Shown here one piece after another: positions 15,027 through 41,318 of a stretch of DNA of 41,318 nucleotides (the stretch's first letter is position 1; each line of letters starts with the position of its first letter). The DNA comes from Clostridium phage slur17. A program made the position numbers and the translations under genes. The stretch is taken from sequence record LN881738.1, one strand, 5' to 3'. The notes beneath the pieces are model-generated. The model ran no database searches. It was given only the letters and a program-made list of their open reading frames with translations, and was not told the DNA's origin.

Positions 15027-15149
15027 AAAAACCTCCTGTTTTCATTTACAATTACGCTTTTTTACGTGGTAGCATCACATATTGTCTAACTTTTTACGTC
15101 GCTTAGTAGACATCTATATAAATGAATTAAGTATTTTAAGCATAAAAAT

Positions 15150-30866: not shown

Positions 30867-31006
30867 GTAGATTTTTTTAAACCAATTAAAAAAAAGTTTT
30901 CTGTTCGTTGTGATTATAATTATAGCACATTTAAATTATAAAAAAATATACTCTTTTTGAAAATAAATTATATTTTAAAAATATATTTTCTAAAATACTG
31001 CATTTT

Positions 31007-31040
31007 AAAAGACTTAGTATATAAACTAAGTCTTTTTTTA
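31007..31040 (+). terminator. 12-bp hairpin plus T-run
   Basis: aaaagacttagt pairs with actaagtctttt around the loop atataa, followed by TTTTA. Confidence 0.45.
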
Positions 31041-31156
31041 TGTAAATATATGTTATAATAATTTTAGCAAGAGAAAGCAATCTATATTCTAAAAAAAGAG
31101 TGGAGTCTATACACAAAAGATTATCCTCCCAACGCTACAAAGGGAGGTGATGAAGT

Positions 31157-31309
31157 ATGGATAATTTTTTACTTAATGTATTAGCTGGTGTTATAGCTAG
31201 TTTAATATTCTATATAATTAGCAAATTATTTAGACAAGTAAAAAACCACTCTGCGCAAAAGAGTGGTTGGGAATTTGATTTGAGAATCAAATTCAAAAAG
31301 TTTAAATAA
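31157..31309 (+). CDS. Type I toxin-like membrane peptide (50 aa)
   Basis: Below the track threshold. SD AAGGGAGGTG. Translation MDNFLLNVLAGVIASLIFYIISKLFRQVKNHSAQKSGWEFDLRIKFKKFK has a hydrophobic N-terminus and a Lys-rich tail. CCTCCC (31125-31130) can sequester the SD GGGAGG (31142-31147). Confidence 0.7.
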   Translation: MDNFLLNVLAGVIASLIFYIISKLFRQVKNHSAQKSGWEFDLRIKFKKFK

Positions 31310-31361
31310 TTTTTTATTTTAGACTAAAACTCTACTCTTATGACTAGAATACAGTTCTCTT
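31240..31361 (-). ncRNA. Candidate antitoxin sRNA, antisense to the toxin 3' end
   Basis: Minus-strand promoter TTGTAT-18-TGaTATAAT (reverse complement of 31368-31397). Terminator aaccactct/agagtggtt (31244-31268) plus a T-run on the minus strand. Confidence 0.55.
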
Positions 31362-31461
31362 GCTTTTATTATATCACATTTTCTTTAAAAGATACAACTT
31401 TACATCATTTTCAGTATTCTATTTTTTTTATTTTTATCAAAGTTTATTTTAAGAACGATAA

Positions 31462-31567
31462 AATTAAAAAACCACTCAAACGCCAATAAGAGTGGTTTAA
31501 GAAAATAAGTTATTTTTCAAAACATTGGAAATAGCTACTCTTGTGTAAAGTAAATCATTATTTCCTT
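31462..31567 (-). ncRNA. Second copy of the sRNA unit (same promoter and terminator architecture, no cognate toxin ORF seen)
   Basis: TTGTAT-19-TGaTATAAT (reverse complement of 31574-31604). Terminator aaaccactc/gagtggttt (31469-31498) plus a T-run. Confidence 0.45.
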
Positions 31568-31761
31568 GCTTTTATTATATCACATTTTTTAAAAAAAGAT
31601 ACAATTTTACATCATTTCTAATATACTAAAATCTTTACTTTTTACCAAAATTTGTTTAAAAAATAGGAGAAAACTATTGTTTTTGACGACCCGTCATGGT
31701 ATAATATATTTATAGAGAAGGAGGTGAGAAAGCAAAAAAATAAAAGAAAGGAGGAACGGGA

Positions 31762-31890
31762 ATGGGGAGATTAGAAAGAAGTAAAAAGAAAAGAGAAAAC
31801 AAATTTAACATAGTTAAAAAAGTTTTCTCCTTCATCCTATTATTACTTAACATAATCCTCGCAGTTCTAAGAATTTTGAAAGAACTGTAA
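31762..31890 (+). CDS. Small membrane peptide (42 aa)
   Basis: SD AAAGGAGG. Translation MGRLERSKKKRENKFNIVKKVFSFILLLLNIILAVLRILKEL. Upstream extended -10 TGgTATAAT at 31696-31704. An ~11-bp hairpin at 31898-31925 follows directly. Confidence 0.5.
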   Translation: MGRLERSKKKRENKFNIVKKVFSFILLLLNIILAVLRILKEL

Positions 31891-31964
31891 GGATAAGCCT
31901 AGAGGGAATAGCCCTTCTCTCTAGGTGACTTCTTTCTAATATTATAACACATTTCTAAAAAAAC

Positions 31965-32126
31965 ATGAGTGATAAATTTTATAAGATTTGCATTGTTTTA
32001 GTTTTGATAACTATAGTCTTAAATATAGTATCTATAGTATTAAACTCTAGTACAAGCAACATGCTCGGTTTAGTTTTTAGTGTTGTATTATTGCTTTTCT
32101 TTGTAATACAGCAAAAAAGGAGCTAA
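31965..32126 (+). CDS. Possible two-TM small protein (53 aa)
   Basis: MSDKFYKICIVLVLITIVLNIVSIVLNSSTSNMLGLVFSVVLLLFFVIQQKRS. There is no clear SD. It ends 3 nt before the AbrB-like gene. Confidence 0.35.
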   Translation: MSDKFYKICIVLVLITIVLNIVSIVLNSSTSNMLGLVFSVVLLLFFVIQQKRS

Positions 32127-32129
32127 TGA

Positions 32130-32312
32130 ATGGAAAAAGAAAAAAGAGATTTAAAGTTTAACTTTCACAAAGGTGGGAGTGGGTCGTTTACTCCTAGAAT
32201 GAGTGTTCCTAAAAAATGGGCTGATGAAATGGGCATAACAAGAGAAAACCCTAATGTTACGGCAACATTCGAGGGCGACAGGATAATAATTGAAAAGGCT
32301 AAGAATGAATGA
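32130..32312 (+). CDS. AbrB/MazE/SpoVT-type DNA-binding protein
   Basis: SFTPRMSVPKKWADEMGITRENPNVTATFEGDRIIIEK is a typical swapped-hairpin AbrB-like domain. Preceded by an AAGGAG SD. Confidence 0.75.
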   Translation: MEKEKRDLKFNFHKGGSGSFTPRMSVPKKWADEMGITRENPNVTATFEGDRIIIEKAKNE

Positions 32313-32322
32313 CTTTTTCTAT

Positions 32323-32360
32323 AAAAGAAGGTTGCTTTTTTTCTTAGCCTTCTTTTTTTT
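32323..32360 (+). terminator. Terminator after the AbrB-like gene
   Basis: agaagg (32326-32331) pairs with ccttct (32348-32353), followed by a T8 run. Confidence 0.5.
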
Positions 32361-32369
32361 AAATTTTAC

Positions 32370-32585
32370 TATAATATAAAAATATTACTGTAATATTATA
32401 AAAATATTATTTTAGTATTGTATATACAATATTTTAGTATTTTTAATATAATATATTGGTATTGTAAAAGCAATATGTAAATATTGTATTTATATTATTT
32501 GAATATTGTAATTAACAATATTAATATATTGTTGCAATATTATAAAAACAATACTACAATATTATTATAATATTATAAATATAAT
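32370..32585. repeat. Centromere-like cluster of ATATTG/CAATAT palindromes upstream of parA
   Basis: Examples: aatattacTgtaatatt, agtattgtataTacaatatt, aatattgtaattaacaatatt, atattgttgcaatat. Confidence 0.55.
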
Positions 32586-32600
32586 AATGAGGTGGAGAAA

Positions 32601-33410
32601 ATGGCTAATACAAAGCTACTTACGTACTTTAACATAAAAGGAGGTATCTATAAGACAACAACGTCTATAATGACAGCGTATGAACTTGCGAAAGATAAAG
32701 ATAAAAAAATACTCTTATGGGACTTAGATGTGCAAGCAAATCTAACACAATATGTTTATGAAATAAATCATAATGATAATACTACATTAGATATTTTAAA
32801 AGGGATTAGTGCTAATGATGCAATAGTCAAGTCACCTAATGAAAATTACATTAATGTAGACTTAATTCCTTCTGACATACAAATGGCTAGATTTGAACAA
32901 GAGCTATCACCTTTACCAGCCAGAGAAAAATTTTTAGCTCGCTGGTACATGCAAAACTTTAATACTTTGAGTGAGTATGATTATATTATCTGTGATTTAT
33001 CTCCACGCTACGATTTGACAGCTAAAAATGTGCTTTTCTTAGCAGATAGTATAATTATTCCAATTCAAGATAAAAACATTTCTTCTTTAAGAGGAGCAGA
33101 ATTATTTAAACAACTCTGGGATGTTGATAGAACCTATTTTGATAAGGAGGATAATATAAAAAGTACTATTTTAGTTGGATTTGAGAAGAAGAAAACTCAA
33201 ATTAGCGATACTTTCGATTCTTATCTGGAAGGGTTTAACGATATGAGAGATATTATGTTAGATACATACATTAGAAAAAATGAGTTTATAGAGAAGGCAC
33301 TATTAAAAAAACTATCTCTAACAGATTATACAAAAATAACTAAAGAGCATTTCAGCAGACAGGAATTTACTAATATGTTAGAAGAATTGAAAAGAAAAGG
33401 AGTGTTATAG
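32601..33410 (+). CDS. parA: ParA-family partition ATPase (deviant Walker A)
   Basis: KGGIYKTT Walker A, LLWDLDVQANLT, and the CDLSP motif. ATG at 32601 follows GAGGTGG. Confidence 0.85.
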   Translation: MANTKLLTYFNIKGGIYKTTTSIMTAYELAKDKDKKILLWDLDVQANLTQYVYEINHNDNTTLDILKGISANDAIVKSPNENYINVDLIPSDIQMARFEQELSPLPAREKFLARWYMQNFNTLSEYDYIICDLSPRYDLTAKNVLFLADSIIIPIQDKNISSLRGAELFKQLWDVDRTYFDKEDNIKSTILVGFEKKKTQISDTFDSYLEGFNDMRDIMLDTYIRKNEFIEKALLKKLSLTDYTKITKEHFSRQEFTNMLEELKRKGVL

Positions 33411-33743
33411 ATGCCAAGTTTCAACAGAGACCTTTTAGTTGATAAAGAAAAACCGATTTTGAAAAATGGAACAATCGTACAAAATGATTCTACAACTACA
33501 GACAATAAGACATTAAACATATATAATCTAGTTAATAAGAAAAGTAAAAAAGTGACTATGAGTGCAACGCTTGATGAGGAGCTTGTAAACAAATTAAAAT
33601 CTTTTTCTATTGATATGAACAGCGACGTTAGTAAATTATTAAGTGATATACTAACTCAAATTTTATCTGATGTCACTATAAAAGAAGAGAATTTAAATAT
33701 ATACAATGAGAGAAATAGAAGAAATAAGACTAAGAAAAAGTAA
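33411..33743 (+). CDS. Partition adaptor, probable ribbon-helix-helix centromere-binding protein (ParG/ParR-like role)
   Basis: TAGATG junction with parA. KKVTMSATLDEELVNKLKSFSIDMNSDVSKLLSDIL fits a beta-alpha-alpha RHH pattern. Confidence 0.6.
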   Translation: MPSFNRDLLVDKEKPILKNGTIVQNDSTTTDNKTLNIYNLVNKKSKKVTMSATLDEELVNKLKSFSIDMNSDVSKLLSDILTQILSDVTIKEENLNIYNERNRRNKTKKK

Positions 33744-33744
33744 A

Positions 33745-33860
33745 TAATATTATATTTATATTGTTTAGATATTACTTAAATATTGTATATATAATATTTA
33801 AGTAATATTTTAATATTATTATTACAATATATTAATATTGTTTAAATAATATGTTTTAAC
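33745..33860. repeat. Second centromere-like palindrome cluster downstream of the par genes
   Basis: 40-bp palindrome atattacttaaatattgtatatataatatttaagtaatat at about 33770-33809, plus acaatatattaatattgt. Confidence 0.5.
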
Positions 33861-33886
33861 TATAATCTAAAAAGGGGTTGGAAAAG

Positions 33887-34168
33887 ATGAACGTTTATCT
33901 GCAAATTGGAAAAGAGTTATCTGAAAAAATGACTAAATCGGAGTTGAATAAGTTTTCGCAAGAAGTAACGAATTATCTACGATTCGCTGGACATGATAAT
34001 GATATGAAAATTAAACTATTTCAAACAATTATAGAAGCAATTGCTAGAAAAAGAGTAACATTGCCAGCTGACAATGAATTTACACAAGGAATAATGTTAA
34101 GTAACGAATTAGAGATGACAACGAATGTAGGATTTATAATCGAAGGATTAAGTTATCATAATAACTAA
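33887..34168 (+). CDS. Hypothetical protein (93 aa)
   Basis: ATG at 33887 lies 9 nt after AAGGGG; the track TTG at 33878 is less likely. No motif recognised. Confidence 0.55.
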   Translation: MNVYLQIGKELSEKMTKSELNKFSQEVTNYLRFAGHDNDMKIKLFQTIIEAIARKRVTLPADNEFTQGIMLSNELEMTTNVGFIIEGLSYHNN

Positions 34169-34173
34169 ACATT

Positions 34174-34208
34174 AAAAAACAGTGTATTTATTGAATACAC
34201 TGTTTTTA
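34174..34208. terminator. Bidirectional terminator
   Basis: acagtgtatt (34179-34188) pairs with aatacactgt (34194-34203), flanked by A5 and T5. Confidence 0.6.
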
Positions 34209-34364
34209 TTTCCGCATAGTTAATCTAAAATTGGATATTATATTATTTCTATATAAATTAAATTGACATTTAAATCCCTCATAGTTAATCTTAAAATTCT
34301 TATTACAATATTATTTCTAAATAAATTAAAAAATATTTTAAATCCCTCGTAGTTAATCTTAAAA
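34203..34364 (-). CRISPR. CRISPR-like mini-array: three 28-29-nt repeats and two spacers (37 and 39 nt), with no cas genes in the window
   Basis: Repeats at 34336-34364, 34268-34296 and a degenerate one at 34203-34230. The minus-strand repeat TTTTAAGATTAACTATGAGGGATTTAAAT resembles clostridial type I-B repeats. The degenerate repeat lies at the terminator-proximal end. Confidence 0.5.
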
Positions 34365-34400
34365 GCGATACTATATACATTAATAATAATACTCTTCTAC

Positions 34401-34871
34401 TTAATTTTCAATTACATTTTGCAATTCTTGTTTACAACTTTCAATGCCTTTTTGTAATTCTTCTAAAAAAACTGATGTGCTATCGTCTATATTTCTTTCA
34501 GCAATTTCTTCGAAATTTTCTTTATTGAATTTTTTATAACTATCCCAATCCAAATTTTCCCACTCATTTTCACACCAATTTTCAAATTCTTCATAATCGT
34601 TTACGTAACAAATTTCTCCAAGCATATCGTTTAAATGAGTTGGCGCTTGATTTAATGTGAAAATATTAATTTCTTTGTCATCACCTAAAAGTTTAGCCCA
34701 AGTTTGAACTGCTATCGCTTCAACTTTTCCTTGTATATCGATATAAATTTTTATATTATTAGTCTCTTTGATTAAACAACTTTCTTTAAAAGCTTTTATA
34801 GCTTCTTCCTCTATTTTATCTATATTCATATCTATAACTCTTAAAAATCTTCTAGCTTTTTGTTTATTCAT
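34401..34871 (-). CDS. Hypothetical strongly acidic protein (156 aa)
   Basis: The C-terminal half is rich in D/E and W (YVNDYEEFENWCENEWENLDWDSYKKF). It is the last gene of a three-gene operon, immediately upstream of the CRISPR-like repeats. Confidence 0.6.
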   Translation of the reverse strand: MNKQKARRFLRVIDMNIDKIEEEAIKAFKESCLIKETNNIKIYIDIQGKVEAIAVQTWAKLLGDDKEINIFTLNQAPTHLNDMLGEICYVNDYEEFENWCENEWENLDWDSYKKFNKENFEEIAERNIDDSTSVFLEELQKGIESCKQELQNVIEN

Positions 34872-37901: not shown

Positions 37902-39752
37902 TTAAATTGCTTGATACATTGCGTAAGTAAAATAACCGTCTCCGCTTTGGTCATATCTAGCCCCGCCTAATGTTATAAACTTTTTGGTTTCATCTTTATA
38001 GCCATTTCCTCTGCCTGCTTCTATACTTGTATTGTAGCCATGATACACAATTCCATAATAACTATTACCTTTATATCCATAACAATAAGTTATGCCTACA
38101 TAAGTACTATTAATAGTTTGCGGTGGGTTATCATCAGCATCCGCAAAGCCTGTGATAGTTCTAAAATAAGCAGTACTTCCTTGTATTGTGTTCTGTATAT
38201 TATTTTTGTAAGTTTGTAAAGTTGAATTTTTGCTAATTAATATGCTTTTAGCTGTATTACTTTTAACCATTCTGTTAAGTGCAAGTCCTGTAAGTGTTAT
38301 TTTGGTCATAGCCGTTGAGCTATTTGCAATTATGCCCATTGCTGTTGTATTATTTACAAAAACACTTATAGACGTATCGTTATTTGCAACTGTCGACATA
38401 GCTTGTGCGTTATTTGCAATTATGCCCATTGCTGTTGTATTATTTGCAATAGTAACGTTATTTTCTGAAATAGTGAGCATAGCATTGAAAGCAGTAGAGT
38501 TATTTGCTATCTTAGTAAAAGCAGTAGTTTTATTTACTAAAATATTTATAGCTGTTGTACTTTTCATAAAAGCATTTAATGACACTGTTTTACTGAAAAT
38601 ACTTTCTATAATTCCCACTCGGTCACCAACTTTATTTACTATAATAGAATTATTTGCAAAAGTTGCCATTGCGATTGAACTTTCTAAAATTGCATCCGAA
38701 ATTTTTATTTTTTCCTCAATATCTCGTTGTGATATATTACGTGTGGTTTCCATACCATCATAATTTTTTACTGCATTTTTTAAAATCGGGAATATTTCTT
38801 CATTATAAGTTATTGCCATAATTTGACCTTTACCAGAAGCAATATTTGATTTTATTGTATTTATATAATTTAAAGAAGTTTGTAAATTATACTTCATTTC
38901 TAATAAATTAGGGATTATTTTTTCAACAGTAACATTATTAGTTAATATTTTATTTATGCTATTTTGGTTTTGCACTAATACTTTTGTAGCTTCTAAGTCA
39001 TTAAATATTTCCATTACGGAGTTTTCGTTACTTGAAATTTGTGTCATAGCTTCATCACTATTTATAATCGCATCCCTAATCACATTATTTTTTAAAATTG
39101 CTCTAATGACTGGTGACTCTGTTGTAACTCTTAAAATATATTGACCTAATAAATCCATAGCATTTGAACTTGCTACAACTGCGTCCATGCTTGATTTACA
39201 CATAGTTAAAGCTACTATTGCATTACTATTATTAAGTATTGCATTAGTAGCTTCCACATTTGCTAATATTTCTTCTATAGTTGTAAGATTTTCTAAATCA
39301 GTATTATCTAAGCTAAAAGTAGAATTAAACCATGCTCCTATAGTTGACTTTTCTTGTTCTCTTGTAACATATCTATCATACCCTGCTTTAAATTTTTCCT
39401 CTAATGAATTATAATGCTCTATAGTCATTTCTTTTACTACATTATCAGCATTTCCTAAGCTAAATATATCTGTTCTATAAAAGGCATTTAATTGTTCCCC
39501 TAGCTTAGTGCTTTTATTAAATAAATTATCAATATCAGTTTCTGAAAAAGCTGTGTAAACTGTTTCTCTTATTCCTCTATCAGAAAATAAATATAAACTA
39601 TTTAAATATAATTCTTCCCATATCCTAGCATTTCCAATAAACAGCACATAACTATCTAATCCATTTAGTTTTATGTCTTGCAAATAACTTAAAAAATTTA
39701 GTGGCTCGCCTTGCAAGTCACTATTCACTTTGTATGTCTCCGCCCAACTCAT
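37902..39752 (-). CDS. Tail fibre-associated / receptor-binding candidate (616 aa) with degenerate NxTA(M)..IAN repeats
   Basis: Start overlaps the fibre stop codon by 1 nt (39752). Repeats include TTAMGIIANNAQAMSTVANNDTSISVFVNNTTAMGIIANSSTAMTKI. A 33-bp DNA segment is duplicated at about 38326 and about 38415. Confidence 0.65.
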   Translation of the reverse strand: MSWAETYKVNSDLQGEPLNFLSYLQDIKLNGLDSYVLFIGNARIWEELYLNSLYLFSDRGIRETVYTAFSETDIDNLFNKSTKLGEQLNAFYRTDIFSLGNADNVVKEMTIEHYNSLEEKFKAGYDRYVTREQEKSTIGAWFNSTFSLDNTDLENLTTIEEILANVEATNAILNNSNAIVALTMCKSSMDAVVASSNAMDLLGQYILRVTTESPVIRAILKNNVIRDAIINSDEAMTQISSNENSVMEIFNDLEATKVLVQNQNSINKILTNNVTVEKIIPNLLEMKYNLQTSLNYINTIKSNIASGKGQIMAITYNEEIFPILKNAVKNYDGMETTRNISQRDIEEKIKISDAILESSIAMATFANNSIIVNKVGDRVGIIESIFSKTVSLNAFMKSTTAINILVNKTTAFTKIANNSTAFNAMLTISENNVTIANNTTAMGIIANNAQAMSTVANNDTSISVFVNNTTAMGIIANSSTAMTKITLTGLALNRMVKSNTAKSILISKNSTLQTYKNNIQNTIQGSTAYFRTITGFADADDNPPQTINSTYVGITYCYGYKGNSYYGIVYHGYNTSIEAGRGNGYKDETKKFITLGGARYDQSGDGYFTYAMYQAI

Positions 39753-41318
39753 TAACTCACCTCTTCTTTTATTTCTTCTATTTGATTACCTTTAAAAGTC
39801 GTTTTTACTTTACTTACTAATACATTATCTATATATTTTTCGTCTACTATAGTCCCATCTGCATTAAATTTAGTTATAGTTTTACTAACCGAGTCTAAAA
39901 TATCTGTTATAGAGCCGTCTGAATTAAAAGTCGTGCTTTTTTTAATGTAATCTAACTCTTTCGGTTTTTCTAATAACTCATTCCATGTAACTTTTCCTTT
40001 TGACGCTTTCCCCGTGTCTTCTCCATTTATAAACCAATTACCGTTTTCGCCGATTGCTGGAGTATAACCTTGTTCCCCTCTAAGCTCTGTATATATATAT
40101 TCCGTTTGTCCTTCTTCTCTAATACCTAGCTGACTTCCATTCCAATTAAATTCTAATTTATTTCCTGTCGCTCCTTTTAGATTTGTATAGCTATAGTCCT
40201 CTTGACCTTCTATTCTAACGCCTAGCTCCGTACCATCCCAACTAAATTCAATGCTATCGCCTTTTTGACCTTTCAAATCTGTATAAGTATAATTCTCCTG
40301 TCCTTCTATCCTTACACCTAGTCGTGTGCCATCCCATGCAAATTCGATATTGTCACCTTTGAGGTCTATATACTTATAATCTAATTCGTATTGTTGCCTA
40401 ACGCCTAACTGTGTGCCATCCCAATTAAATTCTAGGTTCTTGCCGTCCACGCCCGCTAGAGAACCTAAGTCTTCCCATTTAGTTTGATATATATAAATAT
40501 TTCTCCCTATAATCCAGCAATCTCCGATAGTAGGGTCTAATGGTAAGTTATCTATAGAATCTAATTTTCCTAAAATCCTCAAAGATGCCCCTCTAGCTGG
40601 TTTTTGGGTATCTATATTATTAATCCACCAGTTTCCATTTTCTCCTATTGTTGGAGTATAACCCTGCTCCCCTTTCAATTCTGTATAACTATAATTTTCT
40701 TGACCTTCTATCTTTATACCTAATCGTGTGCCATTCCAATTAAATTCAATACTATCACCTTTATCGCCTTTTTGACCTTTTAAATCTGTATAAGTATAAT
40801 TCTCCTGTCCTTCTATCCTTATACCTAGTCGCGTGCCATCCCAATTAAATTCTAAGCCATCTCCATTTTCACCCTTTATTTTTATGTCAGGAACTTTGAC
40901 CCAATTAGTGTTGTCCCAAACATATAAATCAATTTGGTTTTCTATTGTTGCGCTTTTTACAAAGTAAGCATCACTTAAAGTTGGATTGACTGGAAGTGCT
41001 GATATATTATCTAAACTTCCTTTTATTTCTATTCCTACCCCTTTTAACTCTTCTTTTGTGGGGATTGCATTAATAGCGTCTGTAACTTCTGTCTGCATAG
41101 TTTCTTTAGCTGTAGTTACTTCGCTAATCATAGTATTTTTAGCTGTTGTAACTTCCGCTTTAACTGTGTTAACTTCGTCTATTAATGTTGTTTTAGTAGT
41201 ATTAACATCACTAATCATGCTGTTTTTAGCGTCTGTAACTTCTGTAACTTTAGAGTCGAAAGTTTCTTTTATACTATTAAATTCTTCGACCCTTTTACCT
41301 TCTGCGATTTCTAATTCT
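39752..41318 (-). CDS. Tail fibre, 3' part (frame open to the right edge; the track start at 41218 is an internal Met)
   Basis: Upstream of the track Met the frame reads ELEIAEGKRVEEFNSIKETFDSKVTEVTDAKNS. About 7 modules of (L/I)EFNW(D/N)GTxLGxRxEGQxxYxYTxLKG, plus two GYTPxIGENGNW(W/F)IN motifs typical of Gram-positive phage fibres. Confidence 0.75.
   Translation of the reverse strand, partial: ELEIAEGKRVEEFNSIKETFDSKVTEVTDAKNSMISDVNTTKTTLIDEVNTVKAEVTTAKNTMISEVTTAKETMQTEVTDAINAIPTKEELKGVGIEIKGSLDNISALPVNPTLSDAYFVKSATIENQIDLYVWDNTNWVKVPDIKIKGENGDGLEFNWDGTRLGIRIEGQENYTYTDLKGQKGDKGDSIEFNWNGTRLGIKIEGQENYSYTELKGEQGYTPTIGENGNWWINNIDTQKPARGASLRILGKLDSIDNLPLDPTIGDCWIIGRNIYIYQTKWEDLGSLAGVDGKNLEFNWDGTQLGVRQQYELDYKYIDLKGDNIEFAWDGTRLGVRIEGQENYTYTDLKGQKGDSIEFSWDGTELGVRIEGQEDYSYTNLKGATGNKLEFNWNGSQLGIREEGQTEYIYTELRGEQGYTPAIGENGNWFINGEDTGKASKGKVTWNELLEKPKELDYIKKSTTFNSDGSITDILDSVSKTITKFNADGTIVDEKYIDNVLVSKVKTTFKGNQIEEIKEEVS
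41192..41290. repeat. 99-bp perfect direct repeat, copy 2 (partner at 29-127)
   Basis: Identical to 29-127. Exactly 28 nt separate each copy from its window edge. Confidence 0.9.

Follow-up and report, generated by a model that had tools for sequence, protein, structure and literature searches.

A predicted type I toxin-antitoxin module and an adjoining toxin-less antitoxin gene on a phiCD38-2-type phage-plasmid of C. difficile

The genome of Clostridium phage slur17 holds a short reading frame that is faced by a promoter on the opposite strand, which raises the question whether the two form a type I toxin-antitoxin (TA) module and what such a module would do for the element that carries it. 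The window, i.e. the whole stretch of DNA that was analyzed (41,318 nucleotides, record LN881738.1), was 100% identical to the C. difficile phage CDSH1 and to the plasmid record NZ_CP037803 (41,319 bp), and the region of the module was 100% identical to phage AR1075-1 and 99.8% identical to phiCD38-2. On these matches the window is identified as a C. difficile phage-plasmid of the phiCD38-2/CDSH1 type. According to published work, lysogens of such phages carry multiple episomal copies. An earlier interpretation of this DNA, made from its letters alone (hereafter the sequence-only reading), had spoken of a plasmid-like prophage; sequence identity and literature both show that the element is an episomal phage-plasmid, and the module is thus carried on a mobile element (prophage or plasmid).

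The features of the module are as follows, all positions being those of the window:

31007 to 31036, plus strand: terminator-like upstream hairpin and T-run (terminator scan, 12-bp stem)
31051 to 31059, plus strand: toxin promoter with the extended -10 TGTTATAAT, just 3' of the preceding hairpin; predicted transcription start site (TSS) around 31066
31066 to 31364, plus strand: predicted toxin mRNA of about 296-299 nt, both ends inferred
31125 to 31130, plus strand: anti-SD sequence CCUCCC (CCTCCC in the DNA), which pairs with the SD whether the RNA is folded locally or at full length
31142 to 31147, plus strand: Shine-Dalgarno (SD) sequence GGGAGG, 9 nt 5' of the ATG
31157 to 31309, plus strand: coding sequence of toxin A, 50 aa (MDNFLLNVLAGVIASLIFYIISKLFRQVKNHSAQKSGWEFDLRIKFKKFK), with an N-terminal transmembrane helix and a Lys-rich tail
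31240 to 31361, minus strand: predicted antitoxin A RNA of about 122-127 nt, antisense to the toxin 3'UTR and to the final ~70 nt of the coding sequence
31268 to 31244, minus strand: intrinsic terminator of antitoxin A, a 9-bp GC-containing stem and then a U-run, inside the toxin coding sequence (codons KNHS...KSGW)
31368 to 31397, minus strand: antitoxin A promoter, with the -35 TTGTAT (reverse complement of 31392-31397), an 18-nt spacer and the extended -10 TGATATAAT (reverse complement of 31368-31376)

The positions that the sequence-only reading gave for the reading frame, the SD, the CCTCCC motif, the antisense promoter and the terminator were all exact to the base. Its description of the frame as unannotated was mistaken: the frame is gp33 of phiCD38-2, annotated as 'putative membrane protein' in HM568888, with 100% protein identity and 99.8-100% DNA identity between the two. 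The likeness to the type I toxins of C. difficile prophages was confirmed, since the peptide scored 94.3 bits (E 4.2e-27, coverage 1-50 / 1-51) on the NCBIfam equivalog model NF047374 (CD_typeI_toxin, named 'type I toxin-antitoxin system toxin', equivalog cutoff 60 bits) and was 54% identical to Q183X5, the 47-aa toxin of phiC2 and strain 630. On the Kyte-Doolittle scale residues 3-25 averaged +1.9, while residues 26-50 averaged -1.3 and carry a net charge of +6; toxin A thus shows the build of the family, i.e. fewer than 60 aa, a hydrophobic N-terminal helix and a Lys-rich, positively charged C-terminus. The exact sequence occurs on 701 public contigs, its 90% cluster includes entries named 'type I toxin-antitoxin system toxin', and tblastn found homologs in 66 C. 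difficile phage records, the protein being conserved at 94-100% in close relatives. A pattern scan of genome contigs for the toxin returned 600 matches, none of which was confirmed by tblastn. Searching Pfam with toxin A gave nothing significant, only sub-threshold noise from FtsX (15.8 bits) and FeoB-associated (12.9 bits) entries, and no small-toxin or holin family above the gathering score. By sequence, gp33 is a typical representative of the known type I toxins of C. difficile.

The extended -10 of the toxin promoter is kept in nine out of nine A-type homologs, and the hairpin at 31007-31036 probably insulates this promoter from the sequence to its left. For the predicted dimensions the TSS was placed 7 nt downstream of each -10, which resulted in a toxin 5'UTR of around 90 nt. 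The scan called no plus-strand terminator for the toxin mRNA, and its 3' end was assumed from the precedent of strain 630. The predicted mRNA folds with a minimum free energy of -93 kcal/mol (z -8.2); in this fold GGGAGG forms a stem with CCUCCC, and AGCAAGAGAA at the 5' end closes on UUCUCUUGCU at the 3' end. So low an energy is explained in part by the fact that the mRNA contains the complement of a structured RNA. The SD hairpin was seen also when the 5'UTR was folded alone. Sequestration of the SD by CCTCCC, as put forward in the sequence-only reading, is therefore predicted here, and likewise in the eight A-type homologs folded (8/8) and in phiC2. Counted by position, the SD was paired in all nine homolog mRNAs that were folded, at 5/5 positions in eight of them and at 4/5 in phiCD24-1. 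The pairing partner of the SD is kept in all homologs, two distant ones having a different anti-SD sequence, and closure of the 5' and 3' ends was predicted in 8/8 A-type homolog mRNAs. The predicted gp33 transcript thus fits the pattern of a ~300-nt mRNA with a ~85-nt 5'UTR that sequesters the ribosome binding site (RBS).

On the opposite strand, the terminator of antitoxin A is among just three terminator-like sites that the scan called in 1.6 kb, where 0.4 were expected. The predicted antitoxin A RNA folds into four hairpins (z -4.3), three of which are backed by the alignment. The alignment comprised 12 homologous units; neither TGTGATATAAT nor AAAAGCAAG, the bases transcribed first, varies in any of them, and this includes phiCD24-1 and phiSemix9P1 with an identity of 73-77%. 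RNAalifold predicted 31 pairs, five of them with compensatory double changes; two of these five lie at positions of the terminator stem, where A-U is replaced by G-C in homologs. In the terminator of pCD5401_3, one arm carries a His-to-Arg change, which a synonymous substitution on the opposite side of the stem offsets. Both signals that the sequence-only reading had picked out, the convergent promoter of the antisense gene and its terminator within the toxin gene, are thus conserved across the 12 units. At the level of sequence, the antisense gene has its own promoter, converges on the toxin gene, overlaps its 3' end and stops at an intrinsic terminator. The -35 hexamers are weak, and the spacer of the antitoxin promoter is 18 nt long. 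A search of Rfam 15 (4227 families) over 30900-34500, at the gathering threshold and at E up to 1, matched neither of the two antisense RNAs predicted in this region, so that no independent model supports them.

The founding members of the toxin family, CD2517.1-RCd8, CD0956.2-RCd10 and CD2907.1-RCd9, were likened to the gp33 module by their published dimensions, not by alignment. Maikova et al. 2018 (NAR 46:4733, PMC5961336) described the RCd8/9/10 modules as convergent overlapping transcripts with a sequestered RBS. By RACE and Northern analysis in strain 630, their 5'UTRs are 83-88 nt and their toxin mRNAs 298-306 nt long, and the antitoxins, of 125-140 nt, end at a rho-independent terminator. 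The values predicted here are ~90 nt, 296-299 nt and ~122-127 nt, respectively, and the antisense RNA of ~120 nt over the last ~70 nt of the toxin gene, which the sequence-only reading had proposed, fits these measurements.

These data have to be weighed against the reading that gp33 encodes a small membrane protein, such as an exclusion peptide or one akin to holins, and is under no antisense control, and that the minus-strand signals are chance products of an AT-rich sequence or a bidirectional terminator. TATAAT-like motifs are indeed common in the AT-rich window, a simple promoter scan giving 13 sites against 9.1 expected, and the antitoxin, which has no Rfam match, is predicted from sequence and not from transcripts. 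However, the 20-nt promoter block TGTGATATAATAAAAGCAAG is present twice in the window against 0.03 copies expected, its sequence does not vary in relatives of 73-77% identity, and the terminator covaries. Moreover, gp33 belongs at the equivalog level to a family with RACE-mapped antisense RNAs of equal geometry. We therefore consider this reading extremely unlikely. The invariant promoter, the matching dimensions, the folds and the covarying stems support a real antisense gene at gp33.

Closer counterparts are described by Peltier et al. 2020 (Commun Biol 3:718, PMC7699646). According to the accessible text of that paper, a 1.9-kb parA-bearing region of phiCD38-2 'also carried a TA (gp33)', which was proposed to help maintain the phage. 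The phiCD38-2 module and that of the window have the identical protein and locus, with no difference in the toxin. The main text, as far as it is accessible, does not describe the antitoxin RNA, the promoter, the terminator or the adjacent toxin-less antitoxin of phiCD38-2, and the supplement gives no sequence or antitoxin detail on this phage. The same accessible text reports a stabilising effect of homologous modules on plasmids and on the phiCD630-1 prophage, and antitoxins that work in trans and tolerate at least three mismatches. Among these modules are CD0977.1-RCd11 and CD2889-RCd12 of the prophages phiCD630-1 and phiCD630-2, whose toxins have the 47-aa length of Q183X5; toxicity, neutralisation both in cis and in trans, and plasmid stabilisation are reported there for them. 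In the DNA comparison phiC2 served as a stand-in for the strain 630 loci, its ORF being taken as CD0977.1 from its length and its identity to Q183X5 rather than from a locus tag. It shares with the window the extended -10 toxin promoter, the anti-SD/SD hairpin and the minus-strand terminator in the coding sequence. However, the antitoxin of the 47-aa module starts ~72 nt past the stop codon, compared with 52 nt in the window, and the predicted 5'-3' closure is weaker in phiC2. In addition, the CD0977.1-RCd11 and CD2889-RCd12 modules are chromosomal, within a prophage, and adjoin a c-di-GMP riboswitch, whereas the gp33 module is on a phage-plasmid. For the gp33 module itself, the literature search found no paper in which transcripts were mapped or in which toxicity or stability was assayed.

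The gp33 TA module is thus already published, and its finding in the window is a correct rediscovery, because the protein belongs to NF047374, the toxin is named in public records and the TA was reported in 2020, as a likely stabiliser of the phage-plasmid. What is added for the phiCD38-2 group is a detailed map of where the antitoxin RNA is predicted to lie and of how the toxin mRNA would fold, which we did not find in the literature searched, and the view of the locus as a modular swap site (A, B, A with antitoxin B, B with antitoxin A, and an A/B chimera). One detail, a second antitoxin gene with no adjoining toxin, is possibly new.

Taken together, it is highly probable that the region is a type I TA module of the CD_typeI_toxin family, made of gp33 and a cis-encoded antisense RNA, on an episomal phage-plasmid. 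The strong extended -10 promoter at 31051-31059 would drive a toxin mRNA of ~300 nt in which the SD is locked in the CCUCCC hairpin and the 5' and 3' ends are paired, and the full-length mRNA should therefore be stable and poorly translated. From the convergent minus-strand promoter at 31368-31397, an RNA of ~122 nt would be made that is structured, stops at the terminator within the toxin coding sequence, and matches the toxin 3'UTR and the final ~70 nt of coding sequence with perfect complementarity. If the module behaves like RCd8-14, the resulting duplex would lead to RNase-dependent decay, to a block of toxin synthesis, or to both. If the episome is lost, the shorter-lived antitoxin would disappear first, the 50-aa membrane peptide would be made and growth would be arrested; such arrest of episome-free cells would select for retention of the phage-plasmid. 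For the gp33 module, the analysis shows family membership by sequence, where all the elements lie and how they are conserved, the predicted structures, and covariation. That the module is transcribed, toxic and stabilising, and that its two RNAs differ in half-life, is inferred from homologs, among which the CD2907.1 mRNA outlasts RCd9 (35 versus 13 min; Maikova et al. 2018, PMC5961336). Such modules have been assigned several possible roles, of which stabilisation is one.

The same design is known outside C. difficile. In Fst with RNAI-RNAII (par of pAD1), TxpA/RatA and BsrG/SR4 (Bacillus subtilis), a small membrane toxin is combined with a convergent antisense RNA that overlaps its 3' end, the structure of the toxin mRNA hides the SD, and the module is located on a plasmid or a prophage. 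The gp33 module resembles them in mechanism but not in sequence homology (no significant Pfam and no Rfam match).

The second copy of the 20-nt promoter block, at 31565-31584, belongs to another predicted antitoxin gene, termed here orphan antitoxin B:

31466 to 31568, minus strand: orphan antitoxin B RNA of ~103 nt, with its terminator stem at 31469-31498
31574 to 31604, minus strand: orphan antitoxin B promoter, with the extended -10 TGATATAAT (reverse complement of 31574-31582) and the -35 TTGTAT (reverse complement of 31599-31604)

This is a complete unit with an extended -10, a 5' hairpin and a terminator, and its promoter is identical to that of functional antitoxin B units. In JD032, phiCD506 and phiCD146, the gene of an intact toxin B (32-35 aa, MVINFLLSILAGV...), with its own extended -10 and SD, is overlapped at its 3' end by an antitoxin B unit that is 97-99% identical. 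In the window beside antitoxin B, the promoter, the SD and the N-terminal coding part of toxin B are all absent, the homology beginning at the U-run of the terminator. On NF047374, toxin B scored 44.5 bits (E 1.5e-11), below the cutoff of 60 because it is short. Toxin B also resembles, by likeness and not by direct alignment, the toxins of CD0904.1-RCd13 and CD0956.3-RCd14 (35 and 34 aa in the accessible text of Peltier et al. 2020).

Since this toxin-less remnant shows that decay occurs at the locus, unit A itself could be a relic that came in from a plasmid together with parA and has ceased to make a toxic peptide. We regard such a decayed copy as very unlikely: toxin A is full length, its promoter, SD, anti-SD and antitoxin are intact, compensatory changes are present, and neither the 94-100% protein conservation in close relatives nor the occurrence of the exact sequence on 701 contigs fits decay. 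The reading of unit A as an intact type I module is retained.

The arrangements of the two units were counted across two collections:

Unit A with orphan antitoxin B: 5 phages and 2 plasmid records
Unit B with orphan antitoxin A: phiCD146, AR1074-1 and 2 plasmids
Chimeric toxin of 45 aa (5' part from B, 3' part from A), paired with antitoxin A: pB12_1 (1753-1890 of the compared stretch)
Unit A only: 5 phages
Unit B only: at least 7 phages and about 17 plasmids

phiCD146 and AR1074-1 show the mirror order, with an intact toxin B and its antitoxin followed by a 3' remnant of toxin A and antitoxin A (1444-1551 and 1681-1845 of the compared phiCD146 stretch). The distribution of these arrangements marks the TA locus as a modular recombination site at which A and B units are swapped. 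The junction between unit A and orphan B is common to the window, phiCD111 and the divergent Hain-Saunders phage, which points to one ancestral event followed by retention. The orphan unit has been lost in phiCD6356. In the Hain-Saunders phage, antitoxin B bears mixed signs of selection: the terminator pairing is kept via a double change (C-G to U-A), the extended -10 persists as TACAAT, and the 5' hairpin is one pair shorter.

Regulation of toxin A was considered as the main function of orphan antitoxin B. The duplex energy on toxin A was -52.6 kcal/mol for antitoxin B, compared with -202.9 kcal/mol for antitoxin A and -35 ± 4 kcal/mol for shuffled antitoxin B. This function was rejected because the signal is driven by a terminator motif that the two antitoxins share.

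Orphan antitoxin B may be a scar of recombination. That it is instead a gene maintained for anti-addiction is a tentative proposal, which we hold to be possible rather than probable. It is made plausible by the complete unit from promoter to terminator, by the mirror arrangement in phiCD146 and AR1074-1, by the near-exact complementarity to toxin B (0-1 nt differences over 103 nt to the toxin B targets of JD032, phiCD506 and phiCD146), by the shared iterons and parA, and by the trans action and mismatch tolerance of homologous antitoxins. B-type phage-plasmids carry iterons and a parA 98.5-99.6% identical to those of the window, and because of this near identity the common B-type phage-plasmids of 32-36 kb (JD032, phiCD506 and others) should be incompatible with the window element. 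If the proposal is true, an incoming element that makes the antitoxin of its rival could displace it without post-segregational killing, and type I antitoxins would be weapons in the competition between plasmids. If expressed, orphan antitoxins would exemplify anti-addiction among phage-plasmids that compete within a human pathogen, and would affect the use of these toxins as counter-selection markers in strains with such elements. A literature search for an orphan antitoxin in C. difficile found nothing relevant. The orphan antitoxin and the repeats near acrIB2, described below, are modest side leads.

The sequence-only reading also placed a CRISPR-like array 3 kb from the toxin gene, which concerns these features:

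34204 to 34380, minus strand: CRISPR-like repeats, two exact 28-nt repeats (0 expected by chance) and a degenerate third one; a terminator follows
34401 to 34871, minus strand: ORF of an AcrIB2 homolog, 156 aa, acidic, with the repeats directly downstream

The repeats and their distance (2.9 kb) were borne out; the adjacency known from strain 630 was not, and the tie between the module and CRISPR is loose. CD2517.1-RCd8, CD0956.2-RCd10 and CD2907.1-RCd9 directly abut expressed CRISPR arrays, in the sense of Maikova et al. 2018, whereas gp32, an AbrB-like ORF, iterons, parA and further ORFs lie between the gp33 module and the repeats. The two 'spacers' resemble each other. The repeats are 100% conserved in phiCD38-2, phiCD146 and CDSH1, the homologous stretch of phiCD211 is annotated as CRISPR, and Rfam (gathering, E up to 1) has no family for them. 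The ORF at 34401-34871 corresponds by homology to the phiCDHM13 gp28-29 fusion, which an mSphere paper of 2023 validated as the AcrIB2 of phiCD38-2; that paper does not mention the CRISPR-like repeats for phiCD38-2. By their position, the repeats appear to belong to the acrIB2 transcription unit, and they could be a mini-array for phage conflict or a repeat-decoy RNA.

These observations bear on the role of the module. The same type I TA could serve in conflict between elements, through abortive infection or exclusion of phages and phage-plasmids, or in stress-linked growth control. The locus is a recombination hotspot at which A and B modules replace one another, with orphan antitoxins of the other type staying behind, elements with different modules should compete because their iterons and parA are near-identical, and acrIB2 and the CRISPR-like repeats are found in the same region; in addition, Maikova et al. 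2018 (PMC5961336) linked such TA modules to stress and to CRISPR regulation. On the other hand, homologous modules were directly shown to stabilise plasmids and the phiCD630-1 prophage (accessible text of Peltier et al. 2020), and no phage defence data for the gp33 toxin family were found in the literature examined. We consider a conflict or stress role unlikely as an alternative, and stabilisation of the phage-plasmid remains the preferred role.

The surroundings of the module show several further features. The motif TGNTATAAT occurs 13 times in the window against 5.3 expected, and 6 of the 13 copies fall within 30919-31949, on alternating strands. By this count, strong promoters appear to be packed unusually densely into this segment, which lies between the helicase operon and the partition genes.

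Within it, gp32 (31762-31890, 42 aa) has a charged N-terminus and a hydrophobic C-terminus, and family searches gave no match. It is flanked by convergent extended -10 motifs at 31697-31705 (plus strand) and 31941-31949 (minus strand); the region (31697-31949) contains a hairpin at 31897-31926, and a perfect 13-nt inverted repeat joins 31770-82 and 31928-40. This layout is kept in the divergent Hain-Saunders phage, and gp32 may be another pair of a small protein and an antisense RNA. The complementarity between its 5' and 3' parts is only a lead, because it is conserved yet does not covary.

The partition region spans 31965-33853:

31965 to 32126: ORF of a two-helix membrane protein, 53 aa, with no visible SD
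32130 to 32312: AbrB-like ORF, 60 aa, with a weak match to TIGR01439; called 'PemI' in pB12_1
32371 to 32590: 22/33-nt iterons
32592 to 33410: parA
33411 to 33743: ORF of 110 aa
33737 to 33853: second iteron block

Elsewhere in the window, the only match to a curated RNA family was the Rfam GP20-b RNA (RF03003) at 15053-15112 on the minus strand (55 bits, gathering score 36.2). Tandem repeats in register, of 30 nt and ~96 nt, were observed at 38307-38569 and 40077-40877, where they probably lie within coding sequence.
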